From Burkholderiaceae bacterium (GTDB lineage: Bacteria; Pseudomonadota; Gammaproteobacteria; Burkholderiales; Burkholderiaceae_C): a stretch of DNA of 64,000 nt. The DNA lies in NCBI GenBank assembly GCA_030654805.1, contig JAURWR010000127.1, forward strand, positions 26,944 through 90,943, in the 5' to 3' direction. Positions within the stretch are counted from its first letter, which is position 1; the number at the start of each line of letters is the position of its first letter. This document shows, in pieces, positions 5,054 to 26,555 of this stretch. The notes beneath the pieces are model-generated. The model was not told where the DNA came from and ran no database searches. It was given only the letters and a program-made list of their open reading frames with translations. The position numbers and the translations under genes are program-made.

Positions 5054-5119
5054 CAGATCGCGGCGTTTGCCGCATCCAGACACCACGCGTTCGCAGCCCG
5101 CAGCGCCACGATTCGGATC

Positions 5120-5133: not shown

Positions 5134-6444
5134 TTACAGCTCGCGCGCCGGCGGCTGCCCCGCCTCGGCCGCAGCGATGTGATGCTTGGCCCGGCGAATC
5201 GTCCACAGGGCTCCCAGCGCGACCAGCGGAATCGCGATGCCGACCACCAGATCGGGCTCGACGTGCAATCCCCCGGCCTTCAGCCCTTTCGAGACATAGC
5301 CGATCAGACCGGCGACGTAATAGACGATGGCTGCGACCGACAGGCCTTCCACCGTCTGCTGCAAGCGCAACTGCAATTTGGCGCGACGATCCATCGACGC
5401 CAGCAGCGCCTGGTTCTGGCGCTCGCGCGTGATGTCGACGCGCGTCGACAGTAACGCGCTGGTCTGCGCGACGCGCTCCGACAGATCGTGCAGGCGCTGC
5501 GACACCGTCGTGCAGGTCGCGACGGCGGGCGTGAATCGGCGCGCCATGAATTCCTCGATCGTCTGGATGCCTGGCAGGCGCTGCTCGCGCAATTCGGCGA
5601 TGCGCGTGGTCACCAGTTCGAAATAGGCTCGGCAGGCACCGAAACGGAACTGGCTGGATGCCAGTCCGCTCTCGACCTCGGCGGCCAGTCGTGTCAGCTC
5701 CTGCAGCAGCGACTCGTCGTCGCTGCGCTGATCCTGCGCGATGCTGTCGGTCAGCGCAGCCAGCGCACCCTCGATACCCACGATCCGCGGCGACTGGCGC
5801 CGGGCGATCGGCAGCGCCAGCAGCGCGAGCATTCGGTAGACCTCGATCTCGAACAGTCGCTGCAAGGTGCGCCCCGCCTGGCGCGGCGTCAGGCTGCGGT
5901 CGAACACGACAAAGCGCGCATACCCGTCCGCATGAACCCGAAAGTCGGTGAATGCGAAGCCGGAACCATCGCCGATCTCGGCGCCGACCGCGATGTTTCC
6001 GTCGAAGTGATGGGCAAGCAGCGTCGCCTCGGGCGGGCTCTCGGCGGCTGCAAGCAGCGTGGCATGCGCGGCAACGATCGTCGAGCCGGGTATCTGCTCG
6101 AGCCAGCCTTCAGGCAGCCGCGAGACCGCTGTCTCCTGGAAGGGACCACCGCCGCTGCCGGTGAGGCAGAAGGTGTAGCCGGAAAACTCGCCGTGTCGCT
6201 CCCACTTGAAGCGCAGCGTGTCGAGACCCGTGCTGAAGTGCGTCGAACCCGGCTTGGGCGGCGGCACGCCATACAGCGCGCAGAGTGCTTCGATGTGAGC
6301 CAGCTCCTGCTTGCGAGCTTCGACATCGAACAGCACCGCGACGTAAGTCGCCCGGGCCGGTGTGTCGAGCGGCTCGGGGGGGCGGGCATGGACCTCGCTG
6401 GCGAGTTGCAGTCGGTCGGGGTGATCGGGCGGAAGCACGGCCAT
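5134..6444 (-). CDS. DUF3422 family membrane-anchored protein
   Basis: 436 aa. The N-terminus HPDRLQLASEVHARPPEPL and FKWERHGEFSGYTF match my memory of DUF3422. Two C-terminal TM helices (VAAIVYYVAGLIGYV, VVGIAIPLVALGALW). Confidence 0.8.
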   Translation of the reverse strand: MAVLPPDHPDRLQLASEVHARPPEPLDTPARATYVAVLFDVEARKQELAHIEALCALYGVPPPKPGSTHFSTGLDTLRFKWERHGEFSGYTFCLTGSGGGPFQETAVSRLPEGWLEQIPGSTIVAAHATLLAAAESPPEATLLAHHFDGNIAVGAEIGDGSGFAFTDFRVHADGYARFVVFDRSLTPRQAGRTLQRLFEIEVYRMLALLALPIARRQSPRIVGIEGALAALTDSIAQDQRSDDESLLQELTRLAAEVESGLASSQFRFGACRAYFELVTTRIAELREQRLPGIQTIEEFMARRFTPAVATCTTVSQRLHDLSERVAQTSALLSTRVDITRERQNQALLASMDRRAKLQLRLQQTVEGLSVAAIVYYVAGLIGYVSKGLKAGGLHVEPDLVVGIAIPLVALGALWTIRRAKHHIAAAEAGQPPAREL

Positions 6445-6553
6445 GAGTTGCTTTCAGTGGGTGCCGGGAGCGATGGTCTGGCGCGCATCAGTATGCCGCC
6501 GTGCTGAAGTGCCAGCCGCATCCATCACCGACACCGAGCCGACAGACTGTTCA

Positions 6554-6573
6554 GCCGGGGTTGAAGCCCCGGC
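6554..6573 (-). terminator. GC stem-loop just downstream of the giant ORF stop (no U-tract; possible attenuator or processing site)
   Basis: GCCGGGG-TTGAAG-CCCCGGC, 11 nt past the stop at 6584-6586, inside the 139-bp spacer before the DUF3422 gene. Confidence 0.3.
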
Positions 6574-6583
6574 CGATGAAGCG

Positions 6584-9500
6584 TCAGGCCCCTGCGTCGA
6601 TGTAGGCCTGGACATGCGAAATCAGACCGAGTGCTGCCTCGCGCTCCGTGGCCACACCGCTGGACAACGCGCCCTCCAGAACGAAATCCAGCTGATCGAG
6701 TATCGATTTCCACTTCGGAATGCTCGGCATGCGGACCTGCAACACGTCGTAGTCCCGCTCGATGGCGGCGCGCTGTTCTGCCAGCGAGCCCTGTGCGATG
6801 GCCTCGTACATGCGCAGACCCGTCAGGCCGACCACGCTCCAGAAATCCGGGTCGTCGCGCGTCTTGACGACGAGGGCCTGACGCACCGAGGCAAGCCGAT
6901 CGGCATCGAGTGGCGCGCTCCGGGTCCGACCCGCCGGTTGGCCTTTCGTGTGCAAGCTGCCGAGCGCCACTTCGGCCGCCAGTCGGTTCAGCGCCGGGTA
7001 GTACCAGTCGAGCAGACCCGCATCGCGGCCCAGCCGCTCCGCTTCTGAATAGGAGGCGAGCATCAGGCGCAGCGCCTGCTGCTCGGCCGCGCGGTCGATC
7101 GCAGCGTCGCCCGAGGCACGCTCGATCATCGCCAGCCGCTTGTAGGCCGAGCCGCACAGACTGTGGCGCTCCATCGTGGGCTGCAGGGACACCAGTTGGT
7201 TCAGCAGTTGCAGCGCGCAGCCGATCTCGGTGCGTGCGGTCGGGATGATGTTGGCGAGGTGCGCCCTGGCGGCTTTCTCGGCCGCGCCCTGACCTTTCAC
7301 CTTGCGGAACCGATGCCATGCGGTGACCGCCGGGTCCACGTGCCGCCATGCCTGCTGCACGCGCAGGTTGCCCCACTGCTCGCTGGCCTTGATCGAGGCG
7401 CTGCTGTCGTTGGCCGCCAGCGCTCGCTCGTACCAGGCGATGGCGCTGTCGGCATCGCCGGCCGCATTCCACGCGACGCCAAAGGCCTCGGCGACGGCAC
7501 CGATACCGCCCCAGCGGGGCGCGAACTCGGCTTCGAGGTGGCGGATCCTGGCGCGCTGGATTTCGCTGTTGCGCCCCTGATGCTCGGATTCGATCGCCAG
7601 CGTTTCCAATGCCAGCGCCAACGCCGGTGCGGACATCACGCCCGCGTACTCGTCGGCCAGCGAGGGCGCCGGCCGCTGCGGTGCGCCGTCGGCCGATTTG
7701 AGCTGCCAGTCGGGGTCGCCGTAGCACTGGTAGGCCGCCCAGGTGTTGCTGTCCGGTGCATAGGCAGCAAGACGCGCCTGCGCCACCGCATCGATGAAGC
7801 GGGCGCCCCGCAGCAGCGCACCGTAGAACCCGGTGGCGAACTTCAGCGCCGGTTCGTCCTCGACCGCCCAGCCGGCCGCGACGACGCAGCGCACACCGAT
7901 CTCGATCAACGCTTCGGCGACACCGCTGGCAAACCGCGCGCGGTCGAAGTGCGACTCGACATCCATCACCTGCCCGGGGCTGCGCGCCGCCAGGTGGCAG
8001 CAGTTGACGAAGACCAGCTCGGGCACGATGCGCATGCTGCGGATCTCGCACGGGCCGAGGAAGGTGCCCTTCGACAGCACGACACCACGCGCGTTCTTGA
8101 GTCGCGAGCGGGCGGCCTCGGAGGTCGAGTTGGCCTCGGCGTCCCAGGAGTCCGCATCGACGTCCTCTGGCGCTTCGCCGTGCCCTGCGATGTGGACGAT
8201 GCGCCAGTTGCGCGACATCAATTCGTTGATGATCGTCCGGGCGCCGGGACCCGGTGAGTCAGCGTCGGCTCCGAACAGTCCGACCACCTGACCGTCGAGC
8301 ACACCGCCCTGCTTGAGCAGCAGGTCGTGCACCGCCCTCGCCTCGGCGCGAGCACCGGGCAGCGGGGGGTACTTCGCCGCATCGCACTGCGGCTCGCCGA
8401 TCACCAGCATGTGTGCATCGGGCCGCGCGTCGACGACGCCTCGCCGGTACGCCACCGTGGTCAGCGTGCGGATCAGCTTGGCGCGGATGGCCCACGGGAT
8501 CGAGCTCTCGCGAGGGCGAGCGCCCGGGCCTTGCGCATCGGTGTCGGTGTCCAGCAGTTCCCAGGGAATGCCGGAGGTGGCCCGATCGACCTGCAGCAGC
8601 ATCTCGGTCGTGCCGCCGAGAAACGGTTCGAGCTCCAGCGGCACGAGCAGGTTGAACAGCGTGCGGCCGATGCGGGCGTCCTGGTTGCTGTCGCTCGACG
8701 CCTGGGCCACCAGGTCGCGCAGCAAGCGCTCCTGCACCGGCTGCTCCAGTCGTTCGGTGCGCGCTCGCTTTTTGGTATCGACGGTGTATTCGATCACCGC
8801 TTCGCCGGTCGGTCGCAGCGCCACCGTAGCACGGATGTAGTCGTTGCCGGTGCCCCGGTAACCGCCCTCGAGCGGACGCCGCATCGCCCCGATACCGGAC
8901 TGGATCGTGTCGCTCAAGCGATAGCGGCCCGGCGACGCCTGCGCCTGCGCGTACAGCGCCCGCCAGGCCTCGCTGGCGCGATCGAGGTACAGCTCGATCA
9001 GGTGCACGTGCCCGATGCGCGGCCAGCGACGCCGGTCGGCGCCGCTTCGTGCATCCAGCCGGGCGTTGAGTTCGCCCAGCGCGACATCGGCGTCACGCAC
9101 GCCCTGCACGATCGCCTGTGCTGCCTGCCCCGCACTGATGCCGGCACCGCCGCTGCCGATCAGCGTGGCGGCCAGCTCGCAGGTGGTGATGCCATCGCTC
9201 GGTTGTTCGAAGATGCGCTGCGCCAGCGCCAGCGCACCCATCTGCACCGTGTACGCCAGCTCGCTCGGGCGCAGGTTGCCTTCGCCCCCGAGCCCGGTGA
9301 CCACCACGCATTCGGGCCGAGGCAGCTGCAACGGGTTGCCGTTGTGGGCCCCGCTGTTGGCGAAGAACTGGTGGGTTCCCGGCAGATCGGGGTACTGCCG
9401 CAGCGCCAGCGACTCGGACATCGTGCCGCCGATCAGCCGGTCGACCACGGCCTCGGTGCCGGTGAGGTGCGATGAGTTGTAGTGACCGAGCATCAGCGGA

Positions 9501-12457
9501 TGCCGCACGAACTTCAGATCGCCGTTGACCACAGTGATGTTCAGCGCGACGGACGGCTTCCCTCGCCCGGCCGAACCCGTGTCCGGTTCGATGTCGAGCG
9601 TCGGCGTCAGGTCTGCGTCGAGCGGCGGGCGCGGCGAATTGCCCAGGCGTGCGGGCCGGCTGCGCACAGGGGCTGGCGCCAGAACCGCACCGCGTGTCGA
9701 GCCGATCTCGGCTTGAACCGGCAGGCGCCGGGTGCTGCCTTCGACCAGCAGGTCGAGGTAGGCGTCGTAGGCGCGGCGCTCGGCGGGCAGTGCGCCGTGC
9801 TCGCAGTCGACCTTCCAGGCGGGCACGCCCGGCAGCATCGCGCTCGCCAAGGGCACCCTGCCGTCACCCGCGTCGGGCGCGTTCAGGTAGACCAGCCCCG
9901 CGTCGCCGATCTCGTAGCCATCGGGCGTGAAGGCGGCGCCGCCCACCACCAGCACCAGTTGATCCTTGAATTGCGACAGCACCTGATCGCGCTGTTCGTC
10001 GAGTCGACGCCGCAGCGCGATCGCCTGGTCGAGGATGCCTTGTTCGGGCACGCCCCAGCGGTAGGCGTTGATCTGGCGACCGTCGTCATGCCACCAGTCA
10101 TGCGCGCGCACTTCGGCCAGATCGTTGTCGGCGAGCTTCTGCCAGGTCTCGCTGCGGTCGAGCCGGCGCGGGTCGTCGAGCAGCGCCATCTGCAACTGAA
10201 TGAAGCCGGGAAACTGCGCCATCAGCTGCCGGGTCGAATGGTCCTGGAACGGCGCGCCGAACGCGACCAGCGCATTGCCGAAGGTGTCGTCGCCCGACAG
10301 CACCTGCATCGGGGCCCACGACCCGCCATTGGGCGTGCCGAGCATCAGCAGTCGCGCACCGGGGCGCGCCATCATCTGCGCCCAGGTCGCCGGGCATTCG
10401 AGCTGCATCGTGCGCGCGACCAGGCCCCCCATCGAGTGCGCGACCATGCGCACCGGCTGGCCGCTCTTCTCGCGCGCGGCCATCGCCGCCTCGACCGCCC
10501 GACCCAGCCGCTGCGCTTCGAGCTCGATCGGCTTGCGCCAGTCGTACGAGAACTCGATGACCTCGTGCGTCCGTGAAAGAAACGTCACCAGATCGTCGTA
10601 GCTCGACCCGACCGGACCGTCGGGTTCGACGCTTCGGCCTGCCGGGTCGGGGTAGGCGAGTTTCTTCAGACCGTTGATCAATCGCCAGCCGAGCCAGATG
10701 CGCTTTCCGTCGACCTTGATGTGGCTGCCCAGGATGCCGGGCAGCACGAAGACGGCAGGTTTCTCCGAGGTCGCACCCGATGCGGTCGTCGCGTCTCCCT
10801 GATCTCCACCTCGCTTCGCCGCACCGCGCACGCCGCCCGCTGACTCGCCCGCAGACGACAACGGTCCGATCGCGCGCCAGCCCGTCGGTGCCTCCTGCGT
10901 CAATCCGTTGACCACGGCTTCGGCGGTGCGCTCGTTGGCGAAGTAGTTGAAGTGCGTGACCTGACCGCCCTGATCGAGCATGAAGCTCGCACCGTCGGCG
11001 CGCGGCACGCCGCCATACATCGAACGGGTCTGCACCACCAGATCGTTGTCGGTCCAGTAGAACGCATCGGCCATCAGCGTCTTCAGCCACGAGCCGATGC
11101 TGTCGCCTTCCAGATCGCCGGCAACCACCCGAAGCTGGCCGGGCACCGGCTCGTCGGCCGCATGCAGCCAGCGCACCAGGGGGCTGTCGGGAATCATCGC
11201 GGCGACGCCGGGCAACTGCGTCGGGTCGGCCCGCCGCTGCGCGACGCCGCCGATGAAGTCGACCAGTTCGGGCAGCACCGGAATCTGTGCCAGATCGAGC
11301 GCCCACTTGAAGATCGAGATGTAGGCATCGAAGCGACCGCTGGCCAGCAAGGTGCCGCGCGCCGGACAGGCTGCGCGCACGATGCGGTCGATGCTGATCC
11401 GATGATTCTGCAGGTGCGCGATCAGCAAACCCAGCACGCGCTTTTGCTCATCGAGCGCCCGTTGCAGCTTCTGGCGCGCGGCTGCGCCGAGGCCTTCGAT
11501 CATGTCGTCGGGCAGCTCGCCCACCATGAACAGTTCGGACGCCGCGTCGTCGAGTTGCTTCAAGCCTGCCGCCCGCGCCAGCACCTCGGCCACCAGCCCG
11601 CCGCGCGAATGGGTGACGAGGTGCAGCCGCGCCCCGGGCGGGCAGGCCAGCGCCAGCGTGTACGCGTTCTCTATCGGGCTCTTGCCCAACGTCGCGTGGT
11701 CCAGCGCATAGACGCGGTCGCTGTAATGGCTGAACAAGGTACGCACCCGTTGCGGGTGCTGCTGCCAGAGCTTGCCGAAGCCGCTCGACGTTTCCGAAAA
11801 CGTGCCGTGCACGAACACCAGCGTCGGTCCGCCATCGGCAGCGGCAGCCATCGCATCGACCGGGGTCACGCCCTTCAGCCGCGTCAACGTCTGTGCATTG
11901 AGCGCGTACACGCCCTCGACCACCTGACCGTCGATGCGCTGCACGATCTGATCGGCCGCGAAATCCTGGGCGTGCTCGCGCAGGGGGCCGGTCACGACCT
12001 CGATCGCCGACAGCAACACATCGCCCAGAAAACCACGGCTGGCGCCCCGTGAGCTGACGGCATGGGATTCCAGCCCTTCCCATCGCAACTGGGCTGGCAC
12101 ATTCACTTCACTGGGACCCGCCTCGGGAAGCACCTTGCCGCCAGCAGCGCGTGTGCTGCGCCGAGGGATGCCGGTCTGTGCCAGCATCAGATCGCGTGCG
12201 GTGTGCGGGTGCAGCACCAGCGTGGGCCCGTTCTCGATGTGCAGCACCACCATGTCGGTACCCGGCACGGCTTCGATGCGCAGCAAGTCGCCAGTGCCGC
12301 GCGTCGCGCCGACCCGCACCGATGCCTTGACGGTGCCAGGCAGACCCATGGCAGGCGAAGCAGGTGCAGCAGCCCCCCCTCGCTTCGAACCGCCATCGAG
12401 CCGGTGGCCGGCAACGACGAAAGTGACTGGTGTGCGTTCGTCCAGTGTGGCGGGCAT
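6584..12457 (-). CDS. giant multidomain protein: N-terminal domain, two alpha/beta-hydrolase (lipase-like) modules, macro-like domain, CHAT protease, C-terminal helical/TPR-like repeats
   Basis: Uninterrupted ORF. The track start at 12520 is GTG. The ATG at 12457 has GGAG 8 nt upstream and is preferred. Motifs, numbered from the track M1: LVFVHGTF + THSRGG (S305) + DNDLVVQTRS + THFNY; AVFVLPG + AHSMGG (S696) + GDGRVPLASA + CEHGA; CHAT dyad IVHIAGHG (H1447) and VFVNCCHLA (C1507/1508); TPR-like AIAWYERALAAND. Confidence 0.9.
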   Translation of the reverse strand: MPATLDERTPVTFVVAGHRLDGGSKRGGAAAPASPAMGLPGTVKASVRVGATRGTGDLLRIEAVPGTDMVVLHIENGPTLVLHPHTARDLMLAQTGIPRRSTRAAGGKVLPEAGPSEVNVPAQLRWEGLESHAVSSRGASRGFLGDVLLSAIEVVTGPLREHAQDFAADQIVQRIDGQVVEGVYALNAQTLTRLKGVTPVDAMAAAADGGPTLVFVHGTFSETSSGFGKLWQQHPQRVRTLFSHYSDRVYALDHATLGKSPIENAYTLALACPPGARLHLVTHSRGGLVAEVLARAAGLKQLDDAASELFMVGELPDDMIEGLGAAARQKLQRALDEQKRVLGLLIAHLQNHRISIDRIVRAACPARGTLLASGRFDAYISIFKWALDLAQIPVLPELVDFIGGVAQRRADPTQLPGVAAMIPDSPLVRWLHAADEPVPGQLRVVAGDLEGDSIGSWLKTLMADAFYWTDNDLVVQTRSMYGGVPRADGASFMLDQGGQVTHFNYFANERTAEAVVNGLTQEAPTGWRAIGPLSSAGESAGGVRGAAKRGGDQGDATTASGATSEKPAVFVLPGILGSHIKVDGKRIWLGWRLINGLKKLAYPDPAGRSVEPDGPVGSSYDDLVTFLSRTHEVIEFSYDWRKPIELEAQRLGRAVEAAMAAREKSGQPVRMVAHSMGGLVARTMQLECPATWAQMMARPGARLLMLGTPNGGSWAPMQVLSGDDTFGNALVAFGAPFQDHSTRQLMAQFPGFIQLQMALLDDPRRLDRSETWQKLADNDLAEVRAHDWWHDDGRQINAYRWGVPEQGILDQAIALRRRLDEQRDQVLSQFKDQLVLVVGGAAFTPDGYEIGDAGLVYLNAPDAGDGRVPLASAMLPGVPAWKVDCEHGALPAERRAYDAYLDLLVEGSTRRLPVQAEIGSTRGAVLAPAPVRSRPARLGNSPRPPLDADLTPTLDIEPDTGSAGRGKPSVALNITVVNGDLKFVRHPLMLGHYNSSHLTGTEAVVDRLIGGTMSESLALRQYPDLPGTHQFFANSGAHNGNPLQLPRPECVVVTGLGGEGNLRPSELAYTVQMGALALAQRIFEQPSDGITTCELAATLIGSGGAGISAGQAAQAIVQGVRDADVALGELNARLDARSGADRRRWPRIGHVHLIELYLDRASEAWRALYAQAQASPGRYRLSDTIQSGIGAMRRPLEGGYRGTGNDYIRATVALRPTGEAVIEYTVDTKKRARTERLEQPVQERLLRDLVAQASSDSNQDARIGRTLFNLLVPLELEPFLGGTTEMLLQVDRATSGIPWELLDTDTDAQGPGARPRESSIPWAIRAKLIRTLTTVAYRRGVVDARPDAHMLVIGEPQCDAAKYPPLPGARAEARAVHDLLLKQGGVLDGQVVGLFGADADSPGPGARTIINELMSRNWRIVHIAGHGEAPEDVDADSWDAEANSTSEAARSRLKNARGVVLSKGTFLGPCEIRSMRIVPELVFVNCCHLAARSPGQVMDVESHFDRARFASGVAEALIEIGVRCVVAAGWAVEDEPALKFATGFYGALLRGARFIDAVAQARLAAYAPDSNTWAAYQCYGDPDWQLKSADGAPQRPAPSLADEYAGVMSAPALALALETLAIESEHQGRNSEIQRARIRHLEAEFAPRWGGIGAVAEAFGVAWNAAGDADSAIAWYERALAANDSSASIKASEQWGNLRVQQAWRHVDPAVTAWHRFRKVKGQGAAEKAARAHLANIIPTARTEIGCALQLLNQLVSLQPTMERHSLCGSAYKRLAMIERASGDAAIDRAAEQQALRLMLASYSEAERLGRDAGLLDWYYPALNRLAAEVALGSLHTKGQPAGRTRSAPLDADRLASVRQALVVKTRDDPDFWSVVGLTGLRMYEAIAQGSLAEQRAAIERDYDVLQVRMPSIPKWKSILDQLDFVLEGALSSGVATEREAALGLISHVQAYIDAGA

Positions 12458-12642
12458 CGGAGCATCTCCTGAGCTTGTTGTGGTGCCGGCTTGACCAGCA
12501 GGGCCTTCCCGAGGATCCACCCAACGGCCTCAAGGGGCAAGTGCAGACGGGTTGCGGCTCAGGGATGCAGCGACGATAGATGCCTTCTGGTGCGCTCCAT
12601 CACGGGATTTTCCGGTGTGGCTTGCAGGTCGAACGTTTCCAA

Positions 12643-17974: not shown

Positions 17975-18321
17975 CGTTGGCACTCCTGTACCCATAACTA
18001 GGAACTGCGTGAGTATGAACCCCTATTTGCAGCCCGTCATCAATCCGGTGGGGACCCATGGTCCGCACCGTCGATCGATCACATCGGCCCAGACATCCGG
18101 CATGTTCCCGGCCCTGTCGCACCACCCATAGCCAGCCCGAACGGATCAGTCCCGATGGCATGCCTGCCGTTCGAGATTCATGTGACAAAACGTATGGTCG
18201 CGCCGTCCGTGCCGGGCCTTGTCGAGGCTGCGCACGACCAGAACCAACGAATGTCACGGCCTTCATCGGCTCAATTTGCAATTCAGACTGCTTCTGCGGC
18301 CTCAACTCAATCACGACTCAC

Positions 18322-20436
18322 ATGCTGACGATCCAGTCCACTGCCGCACCCGCCGCGAAAATCCGGCTCCGGGTTCCAACCAGCCTACGACATCGGTTGG
18401 CGGCACCGCGGACCTTCGCGCTCGTGCCCGTGCTGGCAGCGTTCTCGGTCGCCTTGGTCCTCACCGATGCTTCGGCTGCCGATTTCACCATCAGCACCCC
18501 CATCACATCGGGGCAGACGCTGGGTAGCAGCGCTGGCCAGACCGGCACCGTCACTGCGACGGGTACGCTGACGGTGAGCGGCGGCACCAACGCAGTCACC
18601 ATCAGCGGCAACAACGCCACCCTGACGAACCTGGGCACGATCAAGCAGACCGGAACGGGCCGTGTCATTCGAGACAACACGGGCGTGACGGGCTTGACCA
18701 TCACCAACGGCAGCCTGACCAACTCCAGCGCGCTGATGCAATCGGCGGACGCTGACGTCATCCAGATGAATGTGGCGGGCGGCAGCGTCATCCTGCACAA
18801 CTACGGCACGATGTCGTCCCTGAACGCCACGGCCGGCGGTGCGCAGGCCGTCGACTTCAGCGCCATCACGACTGGCGCGAACACGGTCAACAACTATGCC
18901 GGGGGCCTGCTGAAAGCCCTGGAGGCCGATGCGGTGCGCACCGGAGTCAACGGTGTCGTGAACAACCACGGCAGCATCCTCGCCATCACGAGCGTCGGCA
19001 GCAGCAGCGATGGCGTCGACTTCCAGAACAACTCGGGCGCGCAGATCACCAACTACGCCACGGGCACCATCACCGGTGGCCGCCACGGCGTCACCGGCGG
19101 TGCGCTCAACAGCACGGTGAGCTTCATCTCCTCGATCACCAATCAGGCCGGTGGCAGCATCCTCGGCAGCAACGGCTCGGGCATCAACCTCGACGGATTC
19201 AACAACAAGCAGCTGGTCACCATCGTCAACAGCGGCACGATCCGGGGCACCGGCGTCACGGGTGATGGCGACGGCGTCGACGTGGACGGCCTGGTCAACA
19301 TCACCAACAGCGGCATCATCCGTTCGACCAACTCCTTCAGCGCCGTGGCAGCCGGCGTTGCGTACAGCGAAGGCATCACCGTGGGTGGTGGCACGATCAT
19401 CAATTCGGGCACGATCGAAGGCTTGGTCAGCGTCGGCAACACGAATTCGCTGGGCCGCGGCATCACGCTGGCGGGCAACGACATCACGTCAGGCGCGTTC
19501 GCTGGCACGCGCGAAGCGATCTACGGCAACGCCGTCATCACCAACAACAACGGGGGTCTGATCCGCGGCCAGAACGACTCGGCGATCGTGGCGGAAGGTG
19601 CTGCCAGCATCTACACCGTCACCATCAACAACAACGCCGGCGCAACGATCCAGGGCGGAAGCGCTACCGCAGCGGCCATCCGCACCGGCTTCGACAACGA
19701 CACGATCATCAACCACGGAACGATCGACGGTTCCAGCAGCGGCCGGGCCATCGACATGGGCGGCGGCAGCAACACACTGAACATCGTCGGCGGTCAGGCA
19801 ATCGTCCTGGGCAACATCAACGGCGGCACCGGAGGCACCAACGCCGTCGTCATCCACCCAGGCGCGGGCAATGGTTTCAGCTACTCGGGGTCTCTGTCGA
19901 ACTTCAGCACGGTCGAGGTCCAGAGCGGTACCGTCACGTTGTCGGGCATCAGCACGTACAGCGGCAGCACCAACATCAGTGGCGGCAAGCTGGTGCTGGA
20001 CGGATCCAACCGCCTGGCTTCTTCGAGCGCGCTGGCATTGAACGGCGGAACGTTGAAGCTGGCGAATTCTGCTGGCGGCAATGGTCAAACCTTCTCCACC
20101 CTTCTCCTGGGTGCAGATTCGTCGATCGAACTGGGCGGCTCCTCGCTCACGTTCAATGCCCTGGGCACGATCGCGAGCGGTCGGACGCTCACCCTGTTCG
20201 ACTACGTCATGTCGACAACGCCGGGGTATGCGATTCGCATCCTCGGTGACGTCACCGGAAACGGGAACTTTCTGGCGCTGATGTCCGGACTGACGATCGA
20301 TGGCGTGGCGGCTGGCTACCACTTCGACGGCACGTACACCGACATCGCACCCGTGCCATTGCCTCCCAGCATGGTCCTGTTCTTGACGGGACTGGGCCTG
20401 ATCGGCTCGGTTGTCCGGCGCCGCGCCACTGTTTGA
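18322..20436 (+). CDS. PEP-CTERM-anchored beta-helix surface protein with autotransporter-associated beta-strand repeats
   Basis: ATG at 18322 with signal peptide ending ASAADF. Gly/Thr/Asn-rich repeats (GTLTVSGGTNAVTISGNNATLTN; SGTVTLSGISTYSGSTNISGGKLVL). C-terminal PVPLPPSMVLFLTGLGLIGSVVRRR sorting signal. Confidence 0.85.
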   Translation: MLTIQSTAAPAAKIRLRVPTSLRHRLAAPRTFALVPVLAAFSVALVLTDASAADFTISTPITSGQTLGSSAGQTGTVTATGTLTVSGGTNAVTISGNNATLTNLGTIKQTGTGRVIRDNTGVTGLTITNGSLTNSSALMQSADADVIQMNVAGGSVILHNYGTMSSLNATAGGAQAVDFSAITTGANTVNNYAGGLLKALEADAVRTGVNGVVNNHGSILAITSVGSSSDGVDFQNNSGAQITNYATGTITGGRHGVTGGALNSTVSFISSITNQAGGSILGSNGSGINLDGFNNKQLVTIVNSGTIRGTGVTGDGDGVDVDGLVNITNSGIIRSTNSFSAVAAGVAYSEGITVGGGTIINSGTIEGLVSVGNTNSLGRGITLAGNDITSGAFAGTREAIYGNAVITNNNGGLIRGQNDSAIVAEGAASIYTVTINNNAGATIQGGSATAAAIRTGFDNDTIINHGTIDGSSSGRAIDMGGGSNTLNIVGGQAIVLGNINGGTGGTNAVVIHPGAGNGFSYSGSLSNFSTVEVQSGTVTLSGISTYSGSTNISGGKLVLDGSNRLASSSALALNGGTLKLANSAGGNGQTFSTLLLGADSSIELGGSSLTFNALGTIASGRTLTLFDYVMSTTPGYAIRILGDVTGNGNFLALMSGLTIDGVAAGYHFDGTYTDIAPVPLPPSMVLFLTGLGLIGSVVRRRATV

Positions 20437-21965: not shown

Positions 21966-22042
21966 TGGTAGGCGCGAATGGACTCGAACCATCGACCCCC
22001 ACCATGTCAAGGTGGTGCTCTAACCAGCTGAGCTACGCGCCT
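21966..22042 (-). tRNA. tRNA-Val (anticodon GAC), CCA encoded
   Basis: 77-nt cloverleaf folded by hand. Acceptor AGGCGCG/CGCGCCT, D stem GCTC/GAGC, anticodon stem CCACC/GGTGG with loop TTGACAT, T arm GATGG-TTCGAGT-CCATT, discriminator A + CCA. Confidence 0.95.
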
Positions 22043-23337: not shown

Positions 23338-23406
23338 ACGTAACGACGATTTTCCCGGCGCATGCGCGGGTTCGAACGCGGGAACAGACGGGTTCGGGTC
23401 GCCCAA

Positions 23407-25677
23407 TCACTTGCGCCGGACCGACCTCACCCCTGCGACCTGCCCGACGAGACCGAGCACCTGGGACAGCCGAGCCGCATCGGCCACCTCGACGGTGAAC
23501 GTCATCCAGGCGGTGCCACCGCCGGTGTCCTTGAACGACTGCGTCTTCACGCTGGTGACGTTCATGCGGTCCTTGGAGAACACTTCGGAGATGTCGCGCA
23601 GCAGGCCCTGGCGGTCGGACGCCTCGACGATCACGTCGACCGGGTACATCGCTTCCTTGCCACCGCGTGGTGCGCCCCACGCCACGCTGATCACGCGCTC
23701 GGGCAAGCGCAGCGCCATCTGCTTGAAGTTGGAGCAACCGCGGCGGTGGATCGCAACACCCTTGCCGCGCGTCACATAGCCGCCGATCGCATCGGGCGGC
23801 GCCGGCCGGCAGCAACGCGACAGCGTCGTCAGCAGCGACTCGACCCCGACGACCAGCACGCCGCCCTTCGGAGACTCCCCTTCGGGCCGGCCCTTGCGCA
23901 GCGCTATCAGATCGTCGGCCGTCGGCTGCGGCTCCGGGGGTTTCAACAGCGTCTCGATATTGCGCAGCGAAAACTCGTCCTTGCCGACCACCTCGAACAA
24001 GGCGTCAGCCTGGCGGAAGCCGAGCTGACCCGCCAGATCGTCGAGCTTGACGGCTGTCTTGCCGATGCGTTGCAGCAGCTTCTCGACTGCTTCACGTCCG
24101 CGCGCGATCGTCTCGGCCTGCGCCCTCGCGTTGAACCAGGCGCGCACCTTGGCCTTGGACCGAGCGCTCCGCACATAGCCCAGCTCGGCGTTCAGCCAGT
24201 CCATCGACGGGCCGCCTTCCTTGGCAGCCGTCACCTCGACGGTCTGACCGTTGGCCAGCGGCGTGTTCAGCGGAACCATCGCACCGTCGACCTTGGCGCC
24301 GCGGCAGCGGTGCCCGAGATCGGTGTGCACTGCGTAGGCGAAATCGATCGGCGTCGCGCCGGCGGTCAGCTCGACCACGGCGGCCTGCGGGGTGAAGACG
24401 TAGATGCGGTCGTCAAAGGTTGCGCCGGCATCGGCATCGACCGAGGAGCCTGCGGCCTCCTCCTGCCCAACGAAATCGCGCTCCCAGGCCAGCAGCTGGC
24501 GCAAAACGCCCTTGCGGGCTTCGGCCAGCTGCGCGTCGAAATCGGAATCGGCCGCCACGGCGCCGGCATAGCCCTTGACCCCGGCCTCCTTGTAGGCCCA
24601 GTGCGCGGCCACGCCGTGCTCCGCGTGATCGTGCATCGCCTGCGTGCGGATCTGCACCTCGACCGGACGGTCGGCCTCGTCGAGCACCACGGTGTGCAGC
24701 GACTGGTAGCCGTTGGGCTTGGGTCGCGCGATGTAGTCGTCGAACTCGTCGGCCACCGGCGGCATCAGGTCGTGCACGCGGCTCAACGCGGCGTAGCAGT
24801 CGGGCACGCTGGCGACGATGACGCGCATCGCTCGCACATCGAGCACGCGGTCGAAGTCGAGGCTCTTTCCCTGCATCTTCTTCCAGATGCTGTACAGGTG
24901 CTTCGGCCGCCCCTGCACCTCGGCCGCGATGCCGTGCTCGCGCAACTGCTCGGCCAGCCGCTGGCGGAAGGCTTCGACGTGCTGCACGCGCTCGATGCGC
25001 TTCTCGTCGAGCAGTCGCGCGACGGTCTTGTACTTGTCGGGTTCGAGGAAGCGGAACGCGAGGTCCTCGATCTCCCACTTGATCTGCCAGATGCCGAGTC
25101 GGTTGGCGAGCGGAGCGAACACCTGCATCGACTCCCGGGCCAGCGGCTCCGGACAGGGCTGCTTGCTGGCGGCGTAATGACGCAGCGTCTGCAGACGCGA
25201 CGCCAGGCGCAGCAGCACCACCCGCAGATCGCGCGAGAACGCCAGCAGCATCTTGCGTACCCGTTCGGTCTGCTGCGCCCGCTGCTCGCCTTCGAACTGC
25301 GCTTCGCGTGCAGCCCGCTGGATCTGCACCAGCTTGCGGGTGTGCATGACGAGGCTGGCATGCGACGGACCGAACGCCTTCGCCACCGTCTCTTCCGGCT
25401 TCTGCAGGTAGTCGCCGGCGTAGACGAGGTAGGCCGCAGCGCGCATCGACGGCGCCGCACCGATGCCGTCGAGGATCGCGCTGACGCCGTCGGCATGCTT
25501 CAGAGCGTCTTCGCCGGTGTCGAGCTGCTGGCCAGCCAGCAGCGGTTCGGCAAACACGCGGGCGCGCTGGACCTGCGATTCGAGGTCTTCGTCCGTGTGG
25601 GTGTCGGCCACACCGGCATCGGCCAGCCGAACGATCGGAGCCGCAGTCGGTGGCGAGGAAGGCGCTGCAGTCTTCAT
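23407..25677 (-). CDS. relA: GTP pyrophosphokinase RelA ((p)ppGpp synthetase I)
   Basis: 756 aa with RelA/SpoT synthetase core (YSIWKKM, DVRAMRVIV, PNGYQSLHT), TGS and ACT regions. The N-terminal pseudo-hydrolase lacks the HD motif, so I call it RelA rather than SpoT. Confidence 0.93.
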   Translation of the reverse strand: MKTAAPSSPPTAAPIVRLADAGVADTHTDEDLESQVQRARVFAEPLLAGQQLDTGEDALKHADGVSAILDGIGAAPSMRAAAYLVYAGDYLQKPEETVAKAFGPSHASLVMHTRKLVQIQRAAREAQFEGEQRAQQTERVRKMLLAFSRDLRVVLLRLASRLQTLRHYAASKQPCPEPLARESMQVFAPLANRLGIWQIKWEIEDLAFRFLEPDKYKTVARLLDEKRIERVQHVEAFRQRLAEQLREHGIAAEVQGRPKHLYSIWKKMQGKSLDFDRVLDVRAMRVIVASVPDCYAALSRVHDLMPPVADEFDDYIARPKPNGYQSLHTVVLDEADRPVEVQIRTQAMHDHAEHGVAAHWAYKEAGVKGYAGAVAADSDFDAQLAEARKGVLRQLLAWERDFVGQEEAAGSSVDADAGATFDDRIYVFTPQAAVVELTAGATPIDFAYAVHTDLGHRCRGAKVDGAMVPLNTPLANGQTVEVTAAKEGGPSMDWLNAELGYVRSARSKAKVRAWFNARAQAETIARGREAVEKLLQRIGKTAVKLDDLAGQLGFRQADALFEVVGKDEFSLRNIETLLKPPEPQPTADDLIALRKGRPEGESPKGGVLVVGVESLLTTLSRCCRPAPPDAIGGYVTRGKGVAIHRRGCSNFKQMALRLPERVISVAWGAPRGGKEAMYPVDVIVEASDRQGLLRDISEVFSKDRMNVTSVKTQSFKDTGGGTAWMTFTVEVADAARLSQVLGLVGQVAGVRSVRRK

Positions 25678-26555
25678 TCGGCCAGCAGAAACTCCCTCAC
25701 GACCCGGACCTGGTCGGCCGACACCAGCGTCGGCGCGTGACCCACGCCATCGAACCGATGCAGTTGTGCACGCGGACCGCGGCCGGACATGGCCTGTGCG
25801 GTATCGGCTGTGAGCAGGTCGGAGTCGGCGCCGCGCAGCAGCAAGGTGGGGCAGGTGATCGCGTCATAGGCACGCCACAGCGCGACCTCGCCTGCGGCGG
25901 CCATTTCGGGCGTCGCCACCTTGAACGGCGCGGCCATCGCGGGGTCGTAGTGCAAATGGACACCGCCACCTTCGACGGATCGCAGCATCGGCCGGGTCAA
26001 GGCCAGCCACTGATCGCGGGTGTGTGGCCCGAAGCCCTTCGAGATCGTCAGCAGGTAATCCGCCGCCTGCTCGACGCTGTCCCAGCGCATCGGCAAACCG
26101 AGATAGGCGCCGATGCGCGCAATGGCCTTCGGTTCGAGCACCGGCCCCACGTCGTTCAACACCAGTCGGCCGATGGGCGACGGCGAGGCCCCGGACGCCA
26201 GCGCGGCCACGCCCATGCCGATCAGGCCGCCCATCGACGTGCCGACCCAATGCACCGTCTCGGCATTCACGCGCGCCAGCACCGTGACCATGTCGGCCAC
26301 GTAACGCGGAATGCTGTACTCCATCGCATTCGCCAGCCAGTCCGATTCGCCGCGGCCTGCGATATCTGGGCAGACGACCCGGTAGCGGTCGCACATCGCG
26401 GCCGCCAGCACATCGAAGTCGCGGCCCTGGCGCGTCAGCCCATGCACACACACCAGCACGCGCGGGTTGGCGGGATCGCCCCACTCCCAGTAGGCGACTC
26501 GGTGCAGCCCCTGGGTGTCGAGGCAGGGAACGTGGTGCAGGCGCGGCGTGTTCAT
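25674..26555 (-). CDS. alpha/beta hydrolase
   Basis: VLVCVHGLTRQGRDF and nucleophile elbow GTSMGG. Its stop overlaps the relA start by 4 nt. Confidence 0.85.
   Translation of the reverse strand: MNTPRLHHVPCLDTQGLHRVAYWEWGDPANPRVLVCVHGLTRQGRDFDVLAAAMCDRYRVVCPDIAGRGESDWLANAMEYSIPRYVADMVTVLARVNAETVHWVGTSMGGLIGMGVAALASGASPSPIGRLVLNDVGPVLEPKAIARIGAYLGLPMRWDSVEQAADYLLTISKGFGPHTRDQWLALTRPMLRSVEGGGVHLHYDPAMAAPFKVATPEMAAAGEVALWRAYDAITCPTLLLRGADSDLLTADTAQAMSGRGPRAQLHRFDGVGHAPTLVSADQVRVVREFLLAE

Follow-up and report, generated by a model that had tools for sequence, protein, structure and literature searches.

What is the role of a gene that joins two lipase-type serine hydrolases, a macro-fold domain, a CHAT caspase-like protease and a helical tail in one polypeptide, and why does it lie among core genes of a bacterial chromosome? 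The question is raised by 64,000 nucleotides (nt) of DNA from a Burkholderiaceae bacterium (contig JAURWR010000127.1, positions 26,944 to 90,943), referred to here as the window, in which this gene, referred to as the big gene, occupies 5.9 kb of the minus strand. We consider that it probably encodes a conflict-system protein, acting in anti-phage defence or abortive infection or in programmed cell death, and that the copy in the window is probably an accessory, defence-type gene lodged in a core region without the TIR partner of its nearest relative. Copies of the protein are already known to databases under a generic name and with their Pfam families; a caspase-family protease switch joined to a putative membrane-damaging effector is of a known kind, and what appears new is the particular architecture, for which no describing paper was found.

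The minus strand carries a single open reading frame (ORF) without interruption at 6584-12520, as a preliminary description of the stretch had stated, with 1978 codons counted from a GTG. Residues are numbered from this GTG throughout, the same scheme as in that description. Of the 28 homologues aligned, 27 had nothing corresponding to codons 1-21 (12458-12520, minus strand), and a Shine-Dalgarno-like AGGAG, read off the sequence, lies at 12466-12470 (minus strand), 8 nt 5' of an ATG at 12457. Thus, the most likely coding sequence is 6584-12457 (minus strand), running from ATG 12457 to a stop codon at 6584-6586, its product is most likely 1,957 aa long, and the start assumed previously, judged by the homologue alignment, was 21 codons too long. 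The upstream GTG is a typical over-extension of an ORF in sequence of high guanine-plus-cytosine (GC) content. The 1,957-aa product is identical to GenBank MDO9316407.1, a 'CHAT domain-containing protein' from a Burkholderiaceae metagenome-assembled genome. A Kyte-Doolittle mean of 1.6 was not reached in any 19-residue window of the protein and no transmembrane (TM) segment or signal peptide was visible, so that the protein most likely resides in the cytoplasm, as had been proposed. A scan for promoters and terminators returned nothing above chance.

Four Pfam families exceeded the curated gathering cut-offs against which all Pfam matches were judged, namely DUF7379, LCAT, CHAT and TPR-S. Together with an AlphaFold2 (AF2) model searched with Foldseek, they upheld all five domain assignments of the preliminary description (two serine hydrolases, a macro-like domain, a CHAT protease and a helical tail); the hidden Markov model (HMM) and structure searches that it had named as a check did support CHAT and the alpha/beta hydrolases (Pfam) and the macro fold (model). 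All the motifs it quoted were present, and the catalytic residues were invariant in 28 full-length homologues (53-86% identity), which served as the conservation set; a wider set comprised representatives of 50%-identity clusters. Coordinates of domains and linkers below refer to the minus strand.

The CHAT caspase-like protease spans aa 1283-1605 (7706-8674; PF12770, E = 1.2e-27) and gave 97.6 bits where the cut-off is 24, in a full-length match that aligned positions 2-289 of the 289-position model to aa 1283-1602. Its dyad, H1447 (GHG) and C1507/C1508, was invariant in the 28 homologues, and among the representatives the His was kept in 106 of 107 and C1508 in 104 of 107. The C-terminal helical TPR tail (aa 1620-1978; 6587-7663) matched TPR-S (PF20308, E = 2.4e-8; 34.9 bits against 27.6 on aa 1731-1848), a family that is also annotated in most homologues. 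A family profile matched consensus TPR structures and had no sequence-level match to any solved CHAT structure.

The first of the two hydrolases is a DUF7379 alpha/beta hydrolase (aa 231-560; 10841-11830; PF24096, E = 1.3e-30), with 107.2 bits against a cut-off of 33 and a match that begins at aa 234; its triad of S305 (THSRGG), D493 and H523 was invariant in the 28 homologues and in 61/61 representatives. Hydrolase 2 (aa 586-935; 9716-10765) is LCAT/PGAP1-like around its nucleophile elbow. It passed the LCAT cut-off (PF02450, E = 2.6e-6; 27.4 bits against 21) with a partial match on aa 651-750, covering model positions 84-181 of 392 around the nucleophile elbow, and stayed below the cut-offs for PGAP1 (22 against 24.3) and DUF676 (12.9 against 20.3). 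The family profile matched structures of LCAT and lysosomal phospholipase A2 (LPLA2) in the PDB, again around the elbow, with E values of 6e-5 to 0.1. The triad of this hydrolase, S696 (AHSMGG), D886 and H908, was likewise invariant in the 28 homologues; among the representatives the Ser was found in 49/58 and both Asp and His in 58/58. Identity between the two hydrolases was ~33% and confined to the nucleophile-elbow region, which indicates distinct enzymes and not the products of a recent duplication, and the strict conservation of both triads argues for catalysis. Judged from these similarities, the hydrolases most likely act on membrane lipids.

These domains are preceded by a conserved beta-rich N-terminal domain (aa 22-230; 11831-12457), delimited by homologue conservation and modelled with moderate confidence (AF2 predicted local distance difference test score, pLDDT, of 75), for which no Pfam match and no Foldseek match in the PDB below E = 1 was found. 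Two variable linkers separate the remaining parts. Linker 1 (aa 561-585; 10766-10840), defined from the conservation profile and alignment, is rich in Gly, Ala and Arg and keeps an invariant G563 and R565, and linker 2 (aa 936-992; 9545-9715) shows low conservation and many gaps. Within linker 2 an Arg-rich island, RSRP[A/S]R (aa 953-958; 9647-9664), was kept in the alignment of the 28 homologues and is possibly a candidate Arg-type processing site, a speculative lead. As a general cleavage site it was dropped, as the motif is confined to forms with hydrolase 2 and absent from single-hydrolase and short forms; it may therefore be the C-terminal end of the hydrolase 2 domain.

Between linker 2 and the protease lies a domain (aa 993-1265; 8726-9544), delimited by the conservation profile, that the preliminary description had called macro-like. 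An AF2 model of aa 975-1290, based on an alignment of database homologues, had a mean pLDDT of 84, and Foldseek matched it in the PDB to the macro domains of TTHA0132, YmdB, macroH2A1.1, MacroD2 and PARP14 (E 2e-6 to 1e-4, TM-score relative to the target 0.57-0.76), to that of PARP9 and to the macro-fold N-domain of leucine aminopeptidase PepA; the matches to macro domains and the PepA N-domain at E of about 2e-6 had target TM-scores of 0.64-0.76. The call was therefore right at the level of the fold, and as modelled the domain is macro by fold and not by sequence family. H1013, E1023, E1080 and S1123, together with the Gly loops GHY, GxE, GxGxE and SGG, were essentially invariant in about 111 representatives, which points to a conserved pocket. 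From a word-index search with this domain alone, nothing was obtained beyond frameshifted or partial fragments of family members.

To place the protein among its relatives, a word-index protein search was used. At E ≤ 1e-5 it gave 1,983 proteins, of which the top 120 were nearly all 1,830-1,990 aa long, with the same Pfam set and generic names only. The preliminary description knew of no characterised protein with this layout, and none was found here, but the layout is not rare, as it belongs to a large database family that already bears Pfam labels. The literature yielded no paper on this architecture, on the macro-CHAT-TPR-S unit, or on CHAT combined with a macro domain or a lipase in bacteria, no matches for DUF7379 and no useful matches for TPR-S; an NCBIfam search gave nothing useful. 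A HMMER search with the macro-fold domain alone recovered 1,151 cluster representatives, and architectures were counted on representatives of 50%-identity clusters. The two-hydrolase form found in the window (N-terminal domain, hydrolases 1 and 2, macro, CHAT, TPR) was seen in 47 representatives, an N-terminal domain plus hydrolase 1 before macro-CHAT-TPR-S (about 1,430-1,530 aa) in 11, and a stand-alone macro-CHAT-TPR-S protein of about 930-990 aa with a true Met start in 32 complete representatives; a two-hydrolase form of about 2,230-2,290 aa additionally bears an N-terminal nSTAND1 NTPase (P0255, P0266). Since the hydrolases vary and macro-CHAT-TPR-S is constant, the latter is the core and the hydrolases are optional N-terminal additions.

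Homologue loci were present in at least 516 species among 185,579 species representatives (one genome per species), that is, at least ~0.3%. The hosts among the loci listed were mostly Burkholderiales, the others including Bradyrhizobium, Ralstonia, Caballeronia, Myxococcales, Acidobacteriota, Cyanobacteriota, Gemmatimonadales and Desulfobacterales. This is the distribution of a patchy accessory gene and not of a core gene, so that the orthologues are not the ubiquitous core genes that the preliminary description had allowed for. Relative to the closest relative (84% nt identity), the ratio of nonsynonymous to synonymous substitution rates (dN/dS) was 0.18 overall and 0.10-0.25 in each domain, with 0.10 in hydrolase 1 and 0.62 in linker 2; these values are pairwise and do not isolate the window's own branch. 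The gene is under purifying selection and is not decaying.

The genomic neighbourhoods of the relatives were surveyed with six-frame ORFs and iteratively built HMMs, and counts were made on the 55 loci flanked by 3 kb or more on each side. Forty-one of these loci had at least one gene for TIR, Peptidase_C14 (C14), DPBB-SPOR, Amidase_2, TPR-S, CHAT or Tle1; by type, C14 was found at 25 loci, DPBB-SPOR at 21, TIR at 16, TPR-S at 10 and Amidase_2 at 7. Distance from the gene provided an internal control: at 0-3, 3-6 and 6-10 kb there were 27, 1 and 1 TIR ORFs, 27, 3 and 1 C14 ORFs, and 9, 0 and 0 Amidase_2 ORFs, so that the density of these three types within 3 kb was ~30-fold that at 3-10 kb. 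Gene order at individual loci illustrates the range. Two loci (L082/L083) read Peptidase_C14, Amidase_2, the big-gene homologue, TIR_2 and Astacin; another (L084) reads RlpA-like, the homologue, a 195-aa protein of unknown type, TIR_2 and C14; and L081 has TIR, AAA and WD40 genes upstream and a TPR-S protein, a Tle1-like gene, a second CHAT gene and C14 downstream. The nSTAND1 form at L088 has five TIR genes and LD_cluster3 directly upstream and TerB, a BrxC/D-like gene and a helicase downstream. At L087 the short form (P0195) follows C14, a gasdermin (E = 3e-35 to PDB 8sl0/7n51) and an unknown gene in the order C14, gasdermin, unknown, macro-CHAT-TPR-S; this was the one gasdermin operon among the loci, and it lies beside the short form only. 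Flanks shifted even among close relatives, and no T6SS (type VI secretion system), PAAR, VgrG or immunity-gene pattern was seen in any neighbourhood surveyed. The Amidase_2 example that was examined had no signal peptide, and such an endolysin-like enzyme could reach the cell wall only if the membrane were damaged. DPBB-SPOR was downgraded as a partner, since the example examined had a lipobox and resembled an ordinary RlpA-type lipoprotein.

Several neighbours are worth recording in their own right. A domain of ~195 aa without a Pfam match occurs alone beside TIR or fused before TPR-S in neighbour proteins of 630-680 aa (L084 15676-16263, L081 15710-17758, L050 7619-9526), and one of these proteins also matches MAP3K_TRAF_bd; we take these proteins to recall effectors of the ThsI type, 'hydrolase + TPR', from type VIII Thoeris. 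In Ralstonia pickettii CP158805.1 (L036; 3115-3984 and 10001-15697), the main homologue has a second macro-like domain ~6 kb upstream of it, which suggests that two paralogous copies are neighbours in this genome. At L016 (6526-9915, plus strand), Peptidase_C14, DPBB (RlpA-like) and SPOR share one frame of 1,130 codons without a stop, immediately upstream of the big gene; this would be a fusion of caspase and RlpA, or else an artefact of the scarcity of stop codons in high-GC sequence.

In the window itself the big gene is flanked upstream by a tripartite ATP-independent periplasmic (TRAP) transporter and downstream by a DUF3422 gene and the end of the ccm operon (ccmF/G/I), the same neighbours that had been described before. 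The closest relative (L090) has the order big-gene homologue, a convergent pair encoding a 274-aa protein and a 642-aa TIR_2 protein, DUF3422, MoxR/vWA/hydrolase and ccmI. By blastn, the 2.9-kb TIR_2 plus 274-aa cassette (L090 12272-15173) corresponds to an empty junction at 6502-6582 of the window, between the big gene and DUF3422; the 4-kb MoxR-AAA/vWA/alpha-beta-hydrolase block (L090 16573-20610) is absent from the window at a junction at 5054-5095; and upstream homology between the two stops at 12529. A second relative (L086, 68% aa identity) has the TIR cassette and no DUF3422, and a third (L085, 73% aa identity) has DUF3422 and no TIR cassette; both L085 and L001 keep the big gene without the cassette. 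These differences place the big gene at a small hot spot of gene gain and loss, prone to indels, where the ccm operon ends; DUF3422 is merely syntenic there, and the window copy is TIR-less.

The DUF3422 gene (5134-6444, minus strand) encodes 436 aa, with a soluble N-terminal part and predicted C-terminal TM helices at aa 367-385 and 395-417. The preliminary description had asked whether orthologues always pair with it; by tblastn it adjoined the big gene in 1 of 80 genome loci, the closest. DUF3422 was rejected as a partner, since only the closest clade has it and in L090 the TIR cassette separates it from the big gene; as DUF3422 adjoins ccm with or without the cassette, the arrangement reflects synteny and not partnership. 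In this clade the 630-640-aa TIR_2 protein is never without the smaller protein of the cassette (268-274 aa; L090 12296-13120 and L086 9144-9950, both minus strand), which is conserved and has no Pfam match. Motifs of the smaller protein, such as INLHENERTS, FDPNRIFSD and ALHNN, look like the active site of a metal-dependent amidohydrolase or peptidase, and the protein is a possible second component of the cassette.

We compared the protein with described systems that share some of its parts. Proteases of the C14 or CHAT type, some of them with TPRs, are encoded next to bacterial gasdermins and activate them (Johnson et al., 10.1101/2021.06.07.447441). The short form P0195, in an operon with Peptidase_C14 and a bona fide gasdermin, resembles these systems; they also share the CHAT His/Cys dyad, the TPR tail and membrane damage as the predicted outcome. 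In contrast, the window protein has no gasdermin nearby and instead carries two lipase-type hydrolases in cis, and it is not a Roc-COR-CHAT protein, as the characterised Runella gasdermin protease is (10.1101/2021.06.07.447441). In type IV Thoeris, TIR-made N7-cyclic ADP-ribose (N7-cADPR) activates the caspase-like ThsE (10.64898/2025.12.03.692087; 10.1101/2024.10.24.620036). The homologues studied here are similarly linked closely to TIR and Peptidase_C14, with a caspase-family protease as executor, whereas the window protease is CHAT and not C14, is part of a protein ~seven times larger with extra domains, and has no TIR gene in the window. Type II Thoeris uses a Macro-domain effector that senses His-ADP-ribose (His-ADPR), and the TPR of the type VIII protein ThsI is presumed to perceive cADPR (10.64898/2025.12.03.692087; 10.1101/2024.10.24.620036). 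The window protein has both a macro fold and TPR-S, and TPR-S-only proteins and TIR genes adjoin homologues; unlike those of type II, its macro-fold domain leans to Peptidase_M17_N and not to Pfam Macro, and the Thoeris effectors are a TM pore or a cytidine monophosphate (CMP) hydrolase rather than lipases plus a protease. In this comparison the ThsI TPR is assumed to belong to the same family as PF20308.

Other CHAT proteases offer a further parallel. Csx29 (the TPR-CHAT protein of Craspase, type III-E) and SAVED-CHAT/PCaspase (type III-B) are partner- or ligand-gated, as is proposed for the present protein, and in type III-B CRISPR the SAVED-CHAT protease processes a downstream caspase (10.1101/2024.10.24.620036). 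With C14 adjacent in 25 of the 55 well-flanked loci, a two-tier cascade of CHAT and then C14 is plausible for the present family as well. The TPR, however, is C-terminal in the window protein and N-terminal in those systems, and no cas genes or SAVED domain were seen: neither the protein nor its neighbours had a SAVED or Cas match in Pfam, and CRISPR arrays were not specifically scanned for. In VMAP ternary conflict systems a caspase-superfamily domain always occurs with an alpha/beta-hydrolase gene (Kaur et al. 2020, PMC7159879). The present family shares with these VMAP/MoxR-vWA systems the coupling of protease and hydrolase, and nSTAND1 and TPR-S belong to the same conflict-system vocabulary; the differences are that here both are fused in one chain, with two hydrolases and no associated VMAP component. 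The MoxR/vWA pair, which the window lacks, lies near L085 and L090 in what looks like chromosomal synteny. As for the lipases, LCAT/LPLA2 (PF02450) and PGAP1-like enzymes have a GHSMGG-type elbow and the same Ser-Asp-His order, but only ~100 of 392 LCAT model positions were matched and PGAP1 and DUF676 stayed below their cut-offs. Overall, in its mode of action the protein would come closest to the caspase systems of the gasdermin-associated and Thoeris types, but in the window it lacks the features that define membership of either.

The preliminary description read the protein as a self-contained sense-and-kill effector. The conflict-system part of that reading is backed by the TIR, C14, amidase, TPR-S, gasdermin and STAND genes of relatives, and 'self-contained' is doubtful because most relatives are multi-gene systems and the window copy is without its closest relative's TIR cassette. 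From association with such genes we infer a function in killing, with ligand gating and cleavage by the protease, and from sequence similarity a lipid substrate. In this scheme macro-fold, CHAT and TPR-S would form a regulatory and protease unit, to which the DUF7379 and LCAT-like hydrolases would be add-on effectors. A signal, in relatives probably a nucleotide-derived product of the adjacent TIR protein, would be perceived by TPR-S, the macro-fold domain or both and would turn on the CHAT protease. CHAT would then activate the cis-fused hydrolases, whether through allostery or by cutting the variable linkers, and might also activate a stand-alone Peptidase_C14 caspase where one is encoded nearby. 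Finally, the hydrolases would breach the membrane, in the role that the gasdermin would have beside the short form, and in some relatives the amidase without a signal peptide could thereby reach the cell wall. This specific chain from TIR signal through CHAT to lipase is tentative, and we regard it as possible rather than likely. A little more doubtful still is a broader proposal in which macro-CHAT-TPR-S would be the signal-receiving hub of an undescribed TIR/caspase immune family and would bind a TIR-derived nucleotide through TPR-S or the macro-fold domain, the short form firing C14 and gasdermin and the long form its cis lipases.

Several observations speak against a conflict system. Fourteen of the 55 well-flanked loci had no partner gene, and because the DPBB-SPOR neighbour looks like ordinary RlpA, its association is probably an effect of the insertion site. 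The rest of the 64-kb window is core chromosome (Mfd, RelA/SpoT, ClpB, NadC, PhoH, Acs), and it contained no TIR, C14/caspase, amidase or TPR-S gene (tblastn with four TIR seeds; Pfam of neighbours) and no gasdermin (Pfam of neighbours). PADLOC-DB v2 models matched the protein with 0 families at E up to 1, and we infer a lipid substrate only from LCAT/PGAP1-type similarity at the nucleophile elbow. Pfam Macro matched 0/52 family members at E up to 10, and Peptidase_M17_N weakly matched 23/52 (best E 0.0037); the latter is a macro-fold branch that is not known to bind ADP-ribose, so that ligand sensing by the macro-fold domain is uncertain. Some of these observations favour other explanations, of which an orphaned remnant, having lost its TIR (and caspase) partner and now functionless or heading for decay, is improbable and yet the least so. 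It would account for the L090 cassette falling exactly at the window's 80-bp junction and for the lack of TIR and C14 within the window; the 5.9-kb ORF is, however, intact with all nine catalytic residues kept, the pairwise dN/dS stays at 0.10-0.25 in every domain (with the window branch not isolated), L085 and L001 keep the gene without the cassette just as 14/55 loci have no partner genes, and a TIR protein could be encoded elsewhere in the genome.

The core-gene surroundings would also suit a housekeeping enzyme of membrane-lipid or cell-envelope turnover, tuned by the attached protease and TPR module, as would the RlpA-type lipoprotein gene that often adjoins homologues and the LCAT-like character of hydrolase 2. 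We hold this to be quite unlikely for a gene found in only at least ~0.3% of species representatives scattered across phyla, with flanks that vary between close relatives, close linkage to TIR, caspase, gasdermin and STAND genes, and no TM segment or signal peptide to place the protein at the envelope. There is very little to recommend an exported anti-competitor toxin, such as a T6SS Tle-like lipase effector: the lipase-type domains and the Tle1-like gene at one relative locus (L081) fit it, but the protein has no signal peptide, the surveyed neighbourhoods show none of the T6SS, PAAR, VgrG or immunity-gene patterns, and a C-terminal CHAT plus TPR-S is typical of intracellular sensors. Equally remote is a developmental or regulatory CHAT protease of the HetF type, in which the hydrolases would be scaffolds or have a non-lethal metabolic role. 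The CHAT family name refers to HetF, and among the loci listed there is an enrichment of filamentous or sheath-forming Burkholderiales, for example the Leptothrix and Rubrivivax relatives, yet the strict conservation of the two triads speaks for catalysis, and the neighbour genes are of immune and not developmental type.

If the conflict-system reading is true, the family would be a large set of bacterial immune or cell-death proteins, with about 2,000 members spread over at least 516 species, in which TIR signalling, caspase-family protease switches and membrane destruction, so far studied apart, are joined, and lipases could replace gasdermins as executioners. Were the more tentative hub proposal also true, the lipases would do the gasdermin's job and the family would be a bacterial parallel to plant immunity, in which the lipase-like EDS1/PAD4 proteins receive TIR signals. 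The modular series of core, core with one hydrolase, with two, and with a STAND NTPase provides natural constructs for studying CHAT gating and its targets.

Elsewhere in the window, the only tRNA gene, tRNA-Val (GAC) at 21966-22042 (minus strand), lies ~9.5 kb from the big gene, with no integrase noted nearby. Two plus-strand ORFs, at 18058-20436 and 23362-25740, are both exactly 792 aa long; the former has a weak match to the autotransporter PATR repeat, the latter, probably a shadow ORF, overlaps relA/spoT, which lies on the other strand, and their equal length is probably a coincidence.

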